49,970 bases of DNA from Longimicrobium sp. (GTDB lineage Bacteria > Gemmatimonadota > Gemmatimonadetes > Longimicrobiales > Longimicrobiaceae), in contig DASQZE010000232.1 in NCBI GenBank assembly GCA_035638875.1, forward strand, positions 1 to 49,970, read 5' to 3'. Below, one piece after another: positions 7,272-16,836 of the stretch (position 1 is its first letter; the number at the start of each line of letters is the position of its first letter). Below the pieces are notes generated by a model. It saw only the letters and a program-made list of their open reading frames with translations. It made no database searches and was not told the DNA's origin. Both the position numbers and the translations under genes were made by a program.

Positions 7272-9881
7272 TTACGCCGCCCCCGACCGGAACGCCAGCC
7301 CCGCGCCGCCCGGATCCCGGTCCACGACCACCGTATCCCCATCCGCGAACTCACCCTCCAGCACGTGCAGCGCCAGCGGGTTCTGCACCAGGCGCTGGAT
7401 GGCGCGCTTGAGCGGGCGCGCGCCGTACGCGGGATCGTACCCCTCCTCCGCGATCAGCTCCTTGGCCGCCTCCGTCACCCGCAGCCCCAGCTTGCGGTCC
7501 GCCAGCAGCTTCTCCAGCCGCCGCAGCTGCAGGTCCACGATGGTCTTGAGCTCCGGCCGGCCCAGGGGACGGAAGACGACCGTGTCGTCCACGCGGTTCA
7601 GGAACTCCGGGCGAAAGTGGCGGCGCAGCTCCGCCAGCACGGCGTTCTCCACCACCACCGCCGTCGTCCGGTCCGCCAGCTCCGCCGAGCGCTCCAGGAT
7701 CAGCGGGCTGCCGATGTTGCTGGTCATGATGATGACCGTGTTGCGAAAGTTCACCGTCCGCCCCTGGCTGTCCGTCGCCCGCCCGTCGTCCAGGATCTGC
7801 AGCAGGATGTTGAACACGTCCGGGTGCGCCTTCTCGATCTCGTCGAACAGCACCACGCTGTACGGTCGCCGGCGCACGGCCTCCGTCAGCTGGCCGCCCT
7901 CCTCGTAGCCCACGTACCCCGGGGGCGCGCCGACGAGGCGGCTGACGGCGTGCTTCTCCATGTACTCCGACATGTCGATGCGCACCATGGCCTCCTCGTC
8001 GTCGAAGAGGAACTCCGCCAGGGCACGCGCCGTCTCCGTTTTGCCCACGCCCGTGGGGCCCAGGAAGATGAAGCTGCCGATGGGCCGGTTGGGGTCCTGC
8101 AGCCCCGCGCGGCTGCGGCGCACGGCGTTGGCGACGGCCTCCGTGGCCTCCGTCTGCCCGATGACGCGCTCGTTGAGGTGCTTGTCCAGCCGCGCCAGCC
8201 GCTCGCGCTCGCTCTGCACCATCCGCGTCACGGGAATGCCCGTCCACCGCGCCACCACCTCCGCGATGTCGTCCACGTCCACCTCTTCCTTCAGAAAGCG
8301 GGACGTCTTCTGCAGCTCCGCCAAGCGCCCCTCGTCGCGCTCGATCTCCTTCTGCAGCTGGGGGATGGTGCCGTACTGCAGCTCGGCCGCCGTGTTCAGG
8401 TCGCCCGTGCGGCTGGCGCGGTCCAGCTCCACCTTGAGCTCGTCCAGGCGCTCCTTCTTTTCGCGCATCACCTGGATGGCGGCCTTTTCCGCCTGCCACT
8501 GCGCCTTCATCCCCGACGAGCGCTCGCGCAGCCCCGCCAGCTCCTGCTCCAGCCGCTGCAGCCGGTCGCGCGACTCCGCGTCGCTCTCGCGGCCCAGCGC
8601 CTGCCGCTCGATCTCCAGCTGCACGATGCGGCGCTCCACCTCGTCGATCTCCAGCGGCAGCGAGTCGATCTCGATGCGCAGCCGGCTGGCGGCCTCGTCG
8701 ATCAGGTCGATGGCCTTGTCCGGAAGGAAGCGGTCGCCGATGTAGCGGTTCGAGAGCGTCGCGGCGGCCACGATGGCCGGGTCCGTGATGCGCACGCCGT
8801 GGTGCACCTCGTAGCGCTCCTTCAGGCCGCGCAGGATGGCGATGGTGTCTTCCACGCTGGGCTCGCCCACGAACACGGGCTGAAAGCGCCGCTCCAGGGC
8901 CGCGTCCTTCTCGATGTACTGGCGATACTCGTCCAGCGTGGTGGCGCCCACCAGCCGCAGGTCGCCGCGGGCCAGCGCCGGCTTGAGCATGTTGCCCGCG
9001 TCGGGCGATCCCTCCGTCTTGCCCGCGCCCACGATGGTGTGCAGCTCGTCCAGAAAGACGATGAACTTGCCGTCCGAGTCTGACAATTCCTTGAGCACGG
9101 CCTTCAGGCGCTCCTCGAACTCGCCGCGGTACTTGGCGCCGGCCAGCATGGCGCTGATGTCCAGCGAGACGAGCGTCTTGTCGCGCAGCCCCTCGGGCAC
9201 GTCGCCGTTGATGATGCGCTGCGCCAGCCCCTCGGCGATGGCCGTCTTGCCCACGCCGGGCTCGCCGATGAGCACGGGGTTGTTCTTGGTGCGGCGGCTG
9301 AGCACCTGCACCACGCGGCGGATCTCCTCGTCGCGGCCGATGACCGGGTCCAGCTTGCCCCGCCGCGCGCGCTCGGTGAGATCGACGGAGAAGCGCTGCA
9401 GGGCCTGGTACTTCTCCTCCGGGTTCTGGTCCGTGACGCGGTGCGAGCCGCGCACCTGCTCCAGCGCCTGGGCGAGCGCCTCGCGGCCGGCGCCCTGCGC
9501 GCGCAGCAGGTCGCGCACGGCAAAACCCTTGTCCGCCAGGGCCAGCAGCAGGTGCTCCGTGCTGATGTACTCGTCCTTCAGGTCGCGCGCTTCCTTCTCC
9601 GCGCGGTCCAGCACCTCGTTCAGCTCGCGCGAGAGCGTGGCCTGGGCCCCGCCCGACTGCTTGGGCAGCCGCGCGCGCGCCGCCTCTACCTCCGTGCGCA
9701 GGCGGGTGGCGTTCACGCCCACCTTCTGCAGAATGGGGACGACGATCCCCTCCTCCTGCTCCAGCAGGGCGCCGATGAGGTGCAGGTCCTCCACGGTGGG
9801 GTTTCCTGCCCGCCGCGCCTCGTTCGCGGCGGACTGGATGGCCTCTGCCGATTTGACAGTAAGTCGATCGAAGCTGATCAT
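7272..9881 (-). CDS. clpB: ATP-dependent chaperone ClpB
   Basis: Two AAA+ domains ([16 protein letters not shown]) and a coiled-coil M domain; likely start MISFDRLT at 9881. Confidence 0.97.
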
Positions 9882-10081
9882 GGCGATTCGTAAATTCAGG
9901 AATTTCAGTCGTTGCCCAATCGCCAGCAGCGACGCCATGCAATCCCCGTTTTGCTTCTCCGGTGATCCTGCCGACGTGCCTCGCCGCAGCGTTGCTGTCT
10001 TGATGGAAAACAACATCCGTGCCTTTCTCCACCTGCCATCCCGTCAGAATGGAATCCAGGGCGGCGAAGGCACCTGGGAAT

Positions 10082-10110
10082 TTGCATTGCACACAAATGC
10101 GTCCTAATAT
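10082..10110 (+). promoter_or_regulatory. Putative sigma70 promoter for the Cys-rich peptide genes
   Basis: TTGCAT-N17-TAATAT in an AT-rich patch. Confidence 0.5.
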
Positions 10111-10273
10111 GTATTACTTCAATTTCCTGCTCCGTATCGTCCATACATCTATTTTTCAGCGTTTTTTCAGGACGTGAGCGGATGCACACGCAGCCCTTTC
10201 GTGTTCCTGTGCGGCGCGATTGGAACGGACGATGTCGGCGGCGGGGCATGATCCACCCGGACCGGGAGGACGG

Positions 10274-10516
10274 ATGAACAGGATGATGACGGCCGCGCGA
10301 CGGACCGCCTACGCGGCGGGGGTACTGGTCTCGCTGGGATTCGGCGCGCGGGCGGCGCTCGCCTCGCCGCTGCCCATGCAGACGTGCACGGAACCGGCCT
10401 ACTCCGTGGGCAGTTGCACGTCCACGAGCGACTGCCGCAAGATCTGCAACCGCCTGTCCAACGGGCTCATCCCCATCTGCGACACGCGGACGTTCTGCTG
10501 CACCTGCCAGAAGTAG
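10274..10516 (+). CDS. Secreted 8-Cys defensin-like (CS-alpha-beta) peptide 1
   Basis: GGAGGA RBS; signal peptide ending in ALA; mature part C-x9-C-x5-C-x3-C-x10-C-x5-CC-x-C. Confidence 0.85.
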   Translation: MNRMMTAARRTAYAAGVLVSLGFGARAALASPLPMQTCTEPAYSVGSCTSTSDCRKICNRLSNGLIPICDTRTFCCTCQK

Positions 10517-10568
10517 CCGCCGCGCCGGACGAGCTCCGGCGCATCCACGCACAGCACGGGAGTACGCC

Positions 10569-10802
10569 ATGACGAAGATGATGAGGAACCTGCGGTCCAC
10601 GGTGTTCGCCGGGGGCGTCGGCGCGGCGCTCGTGTTCGGCGCCGCGTCGTTGCGGGCCGACGTGAGCCCCACGGCCGCCTGCTCGGAGCCGTTCGCCACC
10701 TCGTGCACCACGACGACGGCGTGCGCCAAGTACTGCCGCGGCGTAGAGGGTGCCGGTACGGGCCAGTGCAGCAGCGGCTGCTGCTACTGCATCTGGTTCT
10801 AA
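10569..10802 (+). CDS. Secreted 8-Cys defensin-like (CS-alpha-beta) peptide 2
   Basis: GGGAG RBS; signal peptide similar to peptide 1; C-x7-C-x5-C-x3-C-x10-C-x3-CC-x-C with a GxC (GQC) motif. Confidence 0.88.
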   Translation: MTKMMRNLRSTVFAGGVGAALVFGAASLRADVSPTAACSEPFATSCTTTTACAKYCRGVEGAGTGQCSSGCCYCIWF

Positions 10803-10827
10803 GCCGGTTTCTCCACGGGATTGAAAG

Positions 10828-10861
10828 CGAGAGGCCCCGCCGGCGACCGGCGGGGCTTCTC
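10828..10861 (+). terminator. Hairpin terminator after the defensin-like pair
   Basis: GCCCCGCCGG-cga-CCGGCGGGGC followed by TTCT. Confidence 0.7.
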
Positions 10862-10881
10862 GTGCGTTCGACGCAAGCCGC

Positions 10882-11125: not shown

Positions 11126-11305
11126 ATGCGCAACTTTACCGCCACCCTGCTGCTCGCGCTCATGGCTGCCGTGCTGCCTTCCCTCCCCCGGCCTGCCAGC
11201 GCCCAGATCGTGACGTGCTACAAGAAGGTGTGCGCCGAGTATCCCGACGGAACCAAGATCTGCGAGCTGACGCCGGTGGACTGCAGCCAGGTGAAGATGC
11301 TATGA
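11126..11305 (+). CDS. Secreted 4-Cys peptide A, 59 aa (not in ORF track)
   Basis: MRNFTATLLLALMAAVLPSLPRPASA|QIVTCYKKVCAEYPDGTKICELTPVDCSQVKML; its stop overlaps the next ATG (ATGA); paralog at 12862. Confidence 0.85.
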   Translation: MRNFTATLLLALMAAVLPSLPRPASAQIVTCYKKVCAEYPDGTKICELTPVDCSQVKML

Positions 11306-11670
11306 AGCGCACATCCCTGCGCGTCCGTCGCGCCATTCCGAAGGGCGTCCTGCTCCTGGCCGGGTGCGGCCTGATCGCGTGCGGCGAGTTCACCACCACG
11401 GCACCCGTGGCACCCGCCCCGGCATCGCCACCCTCCGTCGCGGATCTGTCCCCGGAGCAGCGGGAGCTGTTCGACCGACCCGTTCCCGCGGAAGCGCTGG
11501 TGGAACGGCCGGCAACGCAGCAGGAGCTGCAGGCCTTCTTCGACCGGTTCCCACCGGGCCACCTGGAGGCGCTGCTGACCGTTGCCAACCGGCGCGCGGC
11601 CGCCCGCGGCGAGGACACCATCCCCCACTGCCTGCCCCGCTGCGGGACGGGCAAGGCACCCGCGCAGTGA
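11302..11670 (+). CDS. Putative lipoprotein, 122 aa
   Basis: ATGA coupling upstream and GTGA coupling downstream; lipobox-like LAGC/LIAC; Pro-rich linker; C-terminal CLPRC. Confidence 0.75.
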   Translation: MKRTSLRVRRAIPKGVLLLAGCGLIACGEFTTTAPVAPAPASPPSVADLSPEQRELFDRPVPAEALVERPATQQELQAFFDRFPPGHLEALLTVANRRAAARGEDTIPHCLPRCGTGKAPAQ

Positions 11671-12830
11671 AGGCATCGCACGTTCTCGCGGGAACGGCCC
11701 GATTCTTCGTCCCCGCGCTACTGGCTTTTTCGACGGCGTGCACGTCCGGGGAAGCACGCGACGCCGCGCCGGGGAGCGACCTTCCCGCCGCGTGGAACGT
11801 CGCCGAAAAGCCCACGCTGCGGATCGGGGCGTCGGAGGCGGACGCCCTGGGGTTTGTCACCAGCGCGGTGAGCCTGCCGGGCGGCGGCGTCGCCCTGGCC
11901 GACGCGGGCTCGAACCGCATCGACGTGTTCGACGCGCGCGGCCAGCGGGTGCGCACCATCGGCCGCGAAGGGCGCGGGCCGGGCGAGTTCACCCATCCGG
12001 AGTGGATCGGCCTGCGCGGGGACACGCTGCGGGTGTGGGATAGGGTCCAGGCCCGCCTCACCCTGTTCGACACCATCGGCCGGGTCATCCGCACCGAGCC
12101 CCCGCTCACGGACCTGGGATCGTTCCCCCGCGCCGCCGGCCAGTTCGCGGACGGGTCGCTCCTCCTGCTGGGCGGCTCCACCAAGTCGTGGCGGACGGGC
12201 CCGTTCCGCGACTCCATGCTCCTGGTCCGCGTGCACCCCGGCGGCCGCCGCGATACGCTGGGCCGTGTGCCGGGGGACGAGCAGATCGGAAGCGTCGAGC
12301 GAAACGGGACCGTCTCGAAGACCGACCAGCTGCCGTTCGGGCGTCATACGCTCGTGGCCGTGCGTGGCGAGCACGTGTTCCTGGGCACGGGCGACTCGTC
12401 CACCATCGTATCTTCCGCCGACGGCAGGGCGTGGGCGCGGGCGGCCGCCGTTCCGGGCCCACGGCGGCGTGTGACGCCGCAGGACATCGACGAACACTGG
12501 GAGCGGCTCCTGGTCCAGGGCTCCGGCTCCGGCTCCGCGGGCAAACGGCCCGAAGGCATCGACTACCCGGAGGAGTATCCGCCGTACGCGGACGTGCAGC
12601 CTGCCCCAGGCGGCGACCTGTGGGTCCTTCTTCCGTCACGCCCCTCCGAGTGGGGGGTGGGCAGCCGGTGGATCGTGTTCGCCCCGGACGGCGCCGTGCG
12701 GGGCACGGTCTACATCCCGGGGCGCACCCGCATCCTGGAGATCGGGGACGGCTGGATCCTCCTCTCCGAGACGGACGCGGATGACCAGCAACTCGTCGCA
12801 CGATATCCGCTGGCCGCACCCTCGTCCTGA
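11667..12830 (+). CDS. 6-bladed beta-propeller (NHL-like) lipoprotein
   Basis: GTG start overlaps the upstream stop; lipobox STAC; VALADAGSNRIDVFDARGQRVRTIGREGRGPGEF blade signature. Confidence 0.85.
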   Translation: MKASHVLAGTARFFVPALLAFSTACTSGEARDAAPGSDLPAAWNVAEKPTLRIGASEADALGFVTSAVSLPGGGVALADAGSNRIDVFDARGQRVRTIGREGRGPGEFTHPEWIGLRGDTLRVWDRVQARLTLFDTIGRVIRTEPPLTDLGSFPRAAGQFADGSLLLLGGSTKSWRTGPFRDSMLLVRVHPGGRRDTLGRVPGDEQIGSVERNGTVSKTDQLPFGRHTLVAVRGEHVFLGTGDSSTIVSSADGRAWARAAAVPGPRRRVTPQDIDEHWERLLVQGSGSGSAGKRPEGIDYPEEYPPYADVQPAPGGDLWVLLPSRPSEWGVGSRWIVFAPDGAVRGTVYIPGRTRILEIGDGWILLSETDADDQQLVARYPLAAPSS

Positions 12831-16614: not shown

Positions 16615-16836
16615 TCAGCACTGGCGCAGGCCGCACGTCCCGATGCCGTCCGCGTCGCAGGTGGCTCCGACCGTGGCGCAGTACCAATCGCACGAGTGGT
16701 AGCAGGTGTACCGGGGGTAGGTTTCGGGATAGGGGTCCTGCGCGCCGACCACCGTGCCCGCCGACCCGGCCGCCGCCGAAGTGTCAAACGACACCACGTT
16801 CACATCCTCAAGTGTCAGTCTGAGCTTGGTCCGCAT
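16615..16836 (-). CDS. RiPP precursor, pinensin-like lanthipeptide leader
   Basis: GGAGG RBS; leader KLRLTLEDVNVVSF...GTVVG; core with 6 Cys and repeated T/S-C pairs. Confidence 0.8.
   Translation of the reverse strand: MRTKLRLTLEDVNVVSFDTSAAAGSAGTVVGAQDPYPETYPRYTCYHSCDWYCATVGATCDADGIGTCGLRQC

Follow-up and report, generated by a model that had tools for sequence, protein, structure and literature searches.

Tandem Longimicrobium genes for predicted four-disulfide CS-alpha-beta peptides, with relatives across Gemmatimonadota

Introduction

Two small adjacent genes of Longimicrobium sp. raise the question of whether a bacterium of the phylum Gemmatimonadota encodes exported peptides of the defensin/scorpion-toxin type, and of what such peptides might do. 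The initial annotation of the window (the whole stretch of DNA analysed, 49,970 nt) described a tandem pair of secreted, cysteine-rich peptides and regarded bacterial CS-alpha-beta peptides as rarely reported. That view was overstated, the passages covered of Cardoso et al. 2024 (PMC11561630) describing 74 bacterial cis-defensins in five classes, besides the actifensins, with hosts in Proteobacteria (mostly myxobacteria), Acidobacteria and Actinobacteria. According to the same passages, of the few cis-defensins tested, actifensin kills and xanthusin-1 does not. The main text of that paper, as far as covered, contains neither "Gemmatimonad" nor "Longimicrobi", and a literature search on Longimicrobium or Gemmatimonadota with defensins, DUF4876 or DUF6850, covering few subscription journals, returned no paper dealing with this family, nor any on the association with an oxidoreductase and a transporter described below. 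Dash et al. 2019 (Structure), as summarised in the available part of PMC11561630, found defensin-like peptides in many bacterial phyla and may already have noticed members in Gemmatimonadota.

Gene structure of the locus

The features of the locus are collected in Table 1. GC content falls to 0.54 at 9800-10199, against about 0.70 in the surroundings. The description of the pair as two paralogous genes, each with a ribosome-binding site, is borne out by the sequence and by profile-profile comparison of the peptides (probability 98.9, E 2.7e-17, 36% identity). The expected signal peptides are seen on both ORFs as Sec-like leaders, each with a basic N-region, a hydrophobic stretch and an A-x-A-like site near residue 30; the leaders were called by eye and from the family alignment, the cleavage site by eye. 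Both translations carry the eight cysteines first noted, which follow a 7-residue spacer in the mature peptide and end in CC-x-C. The framework of peptide 1 is C38-x9-C-x5-C-x3-C-x10-C-x5-CC-x-C and that of peptide 2 is C38-x7-C-x5-C-x3-C-x10-C-x3-CC-x-C, with net charges of +2 (mature eight-cysteine peptide) and -1, respectively. The terminator that the genes were thought to share is represented by a strong hairpin but lacks the U-tract, and a terminator scan of the locus found no canonical terminator; the hairpin is likely the 3' end of the transcript or a terminator.

Table 1. Coordinates of the two peptide genes and adjoining features in the window.
Feature	Position	Strand	Remarks
Peptide gene 1	10274..10516	+	80 aa; residues 1-30 (nt 10274-10363) a predicted Sec leader
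Peptide gene 2	10569..10802	+	77 aa; residues 1-30 (nt 10569-10658) a predicted Sec leader
Shine-Dalgarno-like GGGAGG, peptide gene 1	10264..10269	+	from sequence
Shine-Dalgarno-like GGGAG, peptide gene 2	10558..10562	+	from sequence
17-bp G+C hairpin 3' of gene 2	10827..10863	+	z -4.74; no T run
clpB	7272..9881	-	divergent from the peptide genes; context gene
A+T-richer divergent intergenic region, clpB/peptide genes	9882..10263	.	putative promoters, none identified

Conservation and RNA-library evidence

One reading takes the ORFs for chance frames in G+C-rich DNA or unexpressed relics. Across 66,220 six-frame ORFs, a regular expression of the framework matches just two in the genome, peptides 1 and 2. 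Homologues number 62 among 65 candidates for peptide 1 and 34 among 36 for peptide 2, with all organism-named matches of both assigned to Longimicrobium sp. All eight cysteines are invariant in the 62-row alignment of peptide 1, which leaves out one 48-aa fragment, and the framework of peptide 2 is present in 34 of 35 sequences, the exception being a truncated fragment without the last four cysteines. The cysteine pattern, whose loss in homologues had been named as grounds for abandoning the annotation, is thus conserved in both alignments.

Selection on the coding sequence points the same way. Omega (GY94) for the mature parts is 0.073 for peptide 1 (9 sequences) and 0.017 for peptide 2 (7 sequences), rising to 0.090 and 0.034 without the cysteine columns, while the leaders give 0.17 and 0.09 and the N-terminus of clpB, taken for comparison, 0.046; the orthologues were chosen by similarity, which biases omega downward. 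Simple codon counting gave dN/dS of 0.32-0.35 for the peptides, values probably inflated by the GC3 of 0.93 (0.92-0.93 in the orthologue sets). The mature regions are under purifying selection.

Contigs from relatives cover both genes in four of four RNA libraries from three studies (soil, biocrust and ice metagenomes), one 574-nt contig spanning 10282-10799. RNA-library contigs may include DNA, which is the point left in favour of the chance-frame reading, and over the wider window many genes show scattered cover, with DNA carry-over possible; the zero cover of the intergenic region 5' of gene 1 carries no weight as evidence. Against chance frames or relics stand the invariant cysteines, omega far below 1, the GC3, the conserved arrays described below and the presence of relatives' contigs in every library, so that this reading is already largely refuted and keeps almost no probability.

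Structural prediction

AlphaFold2 models were built with family alignments; they contain the long helix of the leader, and the domains themselves are very small. Peptide 1 is modelled with a helix at residues 51-62 and strands at 66-70 and 75-79 (pLDDT 78), and peptide 2 with a helix at 49-60 and strands at 64-68 and 71-75 (pLDDT 67). In both, CxxxC falls in the predicted helix and CxC in a predicted strand, with a third cysteine pair present, and the helix is predicted to pack on an antiparallel beta-sheet. A fold lacking a helix disulfide-linked to a beta-hairpin was the first outcome that was to count against the annotation; the models display the helix and the hairpin. The nearest folds are plant defensins and alpha-KTx toxins, at low scores. 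Peptide 2 matches SlD26 with a Foldseek probability of 0.99 (rmsd 0.9, E 0.083) and gives VIA Z 5.1 (rmsd 1.9 over 45 residues). Peptide 1 reaches at best Z 3.9, against an alpha-KTx chain; in Foldseek a spider knottin ranks first for it, with defensins below. Neither peptide has a Foldseek match at E 0.001 or better, and in the ESM Atlas the feature-based leads are all below 0.9, with one plant defensin-like cluster among the low-TM rows. NCBIfam holds no family for either peptide and gave no meaningful match in 30 members. Both peptides are predicted to adopt the defensin/scorpion-toxin (CS-alpha-beta) fold; the suggested comparison with these groups thus returned the expected matches, at weak scores, with plant defensins at least equal to alpha-KTx.

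The resemblance to alpha-KTx toxins, read at face value, would make the peptides K+ channel blockers. The reduced cysteine spacing of peptide 2 and its GxC (G65-Q66-C67) were described correctly, and in peptide 1 P-I-C stands at that position in place of GxC; the gamma-core glycine is found in 34 of 34 peptide-2 homologues and 0 of 63 peptide-1 homologues. The core spacing agrees with that of alpha-KTx, family profiles find alpha-KTx as their best matches in the PDB (E 0.003-0.02), and Pfam Toxin_2 is matched at E 0.0094, but its 16.7 bits lie below the cut-off of 25.1, and 4 of 30 family members match it weakly. Cysteines and glycine account for most of the match, the family is mostly neutral or acidic, and plant defensins fit the models equally well or better. 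As the initial annotation had claimed, Q or I precedes the fourth core cysteine; among the parsed homologues, lysine occupies that place in none of the 63 of peptide 1 and none of the 34 of peptide 2. Channel blocking is accordingly rated very improbable.

Cysteine framework and a proposed fourth bridge

When the fetched loci and the genome were searched with a model of the leader alone, 56 clusters at <60% identity resulted, in which eight-cysteine forms are enriched, the loci having been fetched with peptide profiles. CC-x-C occurs in 26 of these clusters, all 26 with an extra N-terminal cysteine. The other 30 comprise 17 plain six-cysteine forms, 2 four-cysteine forms (CxxxC and CxC only), 6 with an N-terminal cysteine and an extra helix cysteine, 3 with C-terminal extras and 2 others. 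One family member has lost C2 and C5 together, keeping C1 and C6. Because cysteines are gained and lost in pairs across the 56 clusters, we infer the bridges C1-C6, C2-C5, C3-C7 and C4-C8, and a fourth disulfide is likely present. The proposal of a four-disulfide, defensin-like family is supported by the eight-cysteine conservation, the fold prediction and the paired loss. One leader serving four-, six- and eight-cysteine forms offers a natural test set for the addition of disulfides to the CSH core.

Seven members (L036, L040, L043, L045, L014, L125 and L128) have an N-terminal cysteine and an extra helix cysteine as their additional pair, giving CxxCC, a framework that, as we see it, recalls chlorotoxin; no chlorotoxin-type Pfam match was found among the CxxCC members scanned. 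Three four-cysteine peptides (CSH-only, AdDLP-like) at L060:5302-5511, L061:4644-4853 and L064:8414-8620 share the common leader and lie inside clpB arrays.

Probable export route and candidate folding partners

The leaders make Sec export of the peptides likely. Tat export was considered and ruled out, a Tat-like motif occurring in 5 of 135 family leaders. The source genome carries a DsbA-type gene beside VKOR (contig C390), and DsbB was not found in this genome, which is 73% complete.

A scan of neighbours took in 70 of 107 candidate ORFs at 37 loci and placed an AhpC-TSA/Redoxin gene at 9 loci. These neighbours make up one clade of membrane-anchored CxxC proteins with weak similarity to MauD and ResA; MauD has a role in disulfide formation. 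Among 71 Longimicrobiaceae genomes, the clade profile and the peptide-1 profile each match 32, with 29 in common and 36 having neither, and in the 3 genomes with the oxidoreductase only, a leader-bearing cysteine-rich peptide gene adjoins it. At 29 of 50 loci the oxidoreductase has a peptide gene no farther than about 1.5 kb away, or at 18 of 38 without the 12 loci used to build the profile; the genomes are kin, and these counts are not independent and are inflated by kinship. In the subgroup of the source genome the oxidoreductase stands alone (contig C261, motif CQFC, at the contig end). The CxxC oxidoreductase is likely a dedicated disulfide-folding enzyme of the peptide family.

At one locus (L079, G331:C37) the oxidoreductase-peptide unit is flanked by Kelch-repeat lipoproteins, with a TonB-dependent transporter and DUF6850 nearby, the Kelch lipoproteins taking the place of DUF4876 lids.

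Distribution and genomic context

The family extends well beyond the pair. A leader search of the source genome recovered 14 cysteine-rich ORFs, 13 of them of CS-alpha-beta type. Close peptide-1 orthologues occur in 9 genomes of the genus, peptide 2 has no match on plasmids, and many genomes of the genus carry arrays of 1-6 diverging paralogues divergent from clpB. The proposed HMM search across Gemmatimonadota also found the family more widely, a diverse eight-cysteine profile matching 11 of 301 sampled genomes of the phylum in four further families (18 candidates scored per genome). The same profile matches 677 clusters at 50% identity, and the 30 representatives looked up came without a taxon. 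Among the best 150 representatives, 148 have eight cysteines and all have CC-x-C, a feature selected by the profile itself.

The position beside the heat-shock gene clpB invites a reading of the peptides as periplasmic or envelope protease inhibitors or stress-protective binders. The window locus has no linked exporter, and proteinase inhibitors and metal chelators occur among cis-defensins in the passages covered of PMC11561630, both in keeping with it. Yet no array accompanies clpB in five of five good genomes of the genus that were chosen because they showed no matches, further family genes sit in unrelated contexts, and in other lineages outer-membrane transporters occur as neighbours. The functional tie to clpB is weak, its flank may be just an insertion site, and a protective periplasmic role appears quite improbable.

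A diversified arsenal against neighbours is the more serious alternative, with the peptides as defensin-like bacteriocins or antifungal or anti-grazer weapons, while the lipoproteins or transporters next to them would provide export or immunity. The 13 family genes of one genome, the arrays at clpB and the 677 clusters would suit it, as would the charge of +2 on peptide 1. Actifensin, according to the parts covered of PMC12284004, binds lipid II and kills Gram-positives, and its multi-copy operons are described in PMC6989792 (covered in part). CAAX-type proteases adjoin 3 loci. Charge speaks against membrane lysis, however: 118 of the best 150 representatives stand at -1 or lower and 2 at +3 or more, which argues that these are not lytic antimicrobial peptides; the peptide-1 family is mildly cationic, with a mean of +1.65. 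The subfamilies show strong purifying selection and not rapid change, no ABC exporter was found among the 70 neighbour ORFs scanned, and neither peptide has GXGCP, the motif of the actifensin group in the available text of PMC12284004. Myxobacterial xanthusin-1, whose leader is alike by eye, is without antimicrobial activity in the part covered of PMC11561630. Killing is rated somewhat unlikely on this balance.

As an observation on context, the CAAX (Rce1-like) proteases lie beside peptide genes at L017, L021 and L025, with a LytTR regulator at L017, a bacteriocin-like setting.

Functional interpretation

Outside Longimicrobiaceae the neighbourhoods point to a likely partner. Ten genomes there carry the peptide, and in 8 of them DUF4876 lipoprotein genes adjoin it, 7 of these 8 with a TonB-dependent transporter, most with DUF6850 and some with repeated peptide-lid units; the remaining two genomes have the oxidoreductase only beside the peptide. 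DUF4876 proteins are described as predicted transporter lids in the passages covered of bioRxiv 10.1101/2023.03.17.533168, and in the part covered of PMC10434189, iron-stimulon tables of Bacteroidota give 21-215-fold and 38-128-fold changes for DUF4876-type loci, which may be read as induction by iron depletion, the passages themselves not stating so. The same set of lid, transporter and DUF6850 flanks the peptides in other Gemmatimonadota, whereas the Bacteroidota DUF4876/TonB-dependent loci, in the available parts of bioRxiv 2023.03.17.533168 and PMC10434189, come with no mention of a defensin-like peptide. Kelch, RCC1 and six-bladed propeller proteins also turn up repeatedly beside the peptide genes.

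From these observations a role as exported ligands of a specific, conserved partner, rather than as membrane lytics or K+ channel blockers, is given an even chance, and it is favoured over killing on the purifying selection, the acidic charge and the lipoprotein and transporter neighbours. Several findings weigh against the ligand role. Lids occur in 22 of 301 phylum genomes, and of the 14 outside the profile-building set the peptide is present in only 4; structure-search scores are low and peptide 1 is mildly cationic; and tandem arrays of diverging paralogues are also seen in the actifensin bacteriocins of PMC6989792, in the part covered. The lid was found in 0 of 71 Longimicrobiaceae genomes (one query) and not in the source genome (73% complete), so that the receptor link does not reach the window locus directly. 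A complex prediction for the G273 peptide with its adjacent DUF4876 lid scored 0.01 and weighs neither way.

The order of events that we propose starts from what is observed, namely two genes with a conserved eight-cysteine framework under purifying selection, their family and their neighbourhoods. It continues with the predicted helix and beta-hairpin core and the putative bridges set out above, these three steps being jointly regarded as highly probable. After cleavage of the leader, DsbA/VKOR would oxidise the peptide in the periplasm with the aid of the family-dedicated, membrane-anchored MauD/ResA-like CxxC oxidoreductase putatively represented by the gene on contig C261, a step held with fair confidence. 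In the weakest step the folded peptide would serve as a ligand, either signal or cargo, for a surface protein, which in other Gemmatimonadota lineages is likely the DUF4876 lid with its TonB-dependent transporter; this stands slightly short of an even chance.

A more elaborate version, which is considered unlikely, has CS-alpha-beta peptides, folded by a dedicated oxidoreductase, passing through their cognate DUF4876-lid/TonB-dependent transporter, whether to scavenge metal or heme, as signals or as cargo for export; Longimicrobium would have lost the transporter while its peptides multiplied into a combinatorial library of two-, three- and four-disulfide forms. If true, the cis-defensin fold would have an ancient bacterial role other than defence, and one leader family would display the disulfide series proposed for the origins of defensins and toxins. 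The family size, the mostly anionic charge, the likely C1-C6 bridge, the CxxC oxidoreductase and the link to TonB-dependent transporters had all escaped the initial annotation.

Relation to known systems

Macins are longer animal peptides in which the bridging cysteine lies several residues before CxC; here it directly precedes CxC. In hydramacin the fourth bond is C1-C7 of a ten-cysteine array (Tarr 2016, PMC5116183, covered in part), which is the same topology as the fourth bridge proposed here, from an N-terminal cysteine to one between the gamma-core cysteine and CxC. The likeness is probably convergent, as macins were absent from the results of the sequence and fold searches; xanthusin-1 was likewise missing from the fold and PDB sequence results.

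The myxobacterial cis-defensin classes I-III share a signal peptide and CS-alpha-beta core with the present family, and the leaders of classes I and II look alike by eye (Tables S2-S3, no score), as far as PMC11561630 was covered. For class III a fourth bridge is predicted between the first cysteine and a hairpin cysteine, like the C1-C6 suggested here, given as 1-6 in one place of that text and 1-5 in another. Its spacing in three Polyangiaceae sequences is C-x2-C-x5-C-x3-C-x7-C-x4-C-x2-C-x-C with a 15-residue acidic tail; unlike this, the present family has C-x(4-12)-C ... CC-x-C (x7 and x9 in the window peptides) and a 7-residue tail. The available text of PMC11561630 describes no oxidoreductase or transporter neighbours. 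In class V and plant defensins the fourth bond joins the first and last cysteines, the last lying C-terminal of CxC, and no cysteine follows CxC here. Compared at the sequence level, the spacing is unlike all five published bacterial defensin classes.

Actifensin and actinomycesin (PMC6989792, PMC8819291 and PMC12284004, in the parts covered) are likewise CS-alpha-beta peptides encoded in multi-copy tandem operons, but the six core cysteines, GXGCP, GA/GG-type leader and ABC transporters of that group are not seen here; that group also binds lipid II. Core spacing and predicted fold are held in common with alpha-KTx (Toxin_2) and plant defensins (Gamma-thionin); scores below the curated cut-offs set the family apart from both, and from alpha-KTx also the lack of the dyad lysine (KCXN motif in the passages covered of PMC11561630). 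AdDLP of Anaeromyxobacter is a four-cysteine CSH peptide (PMC5116183, covered in part), against eight cysteines in the window peptides.

Bacterial cis-defensins are thus already known, and what is new is this putative four-disulfide variant with a C1-C6 framework in Gemmatimonadota. It adds a phylum absent from the cis-defensin literature covered and at least 677 sequence clusters to the 74 catalogued peptides, together with first genomic handles, as candidates, on folding (the co-occurring CxxC oxidoreductase) and on binding partners (the transporter lids). Stable four-disulfide mini-proteins with a bacterial folding helper would be of practical interest as scaffolds.

Additional observations

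Downstream of the pair, 11126-11305, 11302-11670 and 11667-12830 (all +) encode a four-cysteine small secreted-type peptide, a lipoprotein and a six-bladed propeller lipoprotein in one likely operon, the last with a weak DUF5128 match. Other genomes of the genus also have homologues of these genes near clpB, and a 2041-nt RNA-library contig spans 11120-13056. The window propeller is 30% identical to a G273 propeller sited between oxidoreductase and peptide.

At 16615-16836 (-), a 73-aa ORF has a leader-like N-terminus and a core with six cysteines and several threonines, presumably resembling a lanthipeptide-type precursor; it has no NCBIfam match, and a similar ORF lies on contig C313 of the source genome. 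Contigs C35, C366, C486, C32 and C602 of that genome carry small secreted-type cysteine-rich ORFs of unrelated pattern, some in tandem, and the source genome is rich in putative disulfide mini-proteins.
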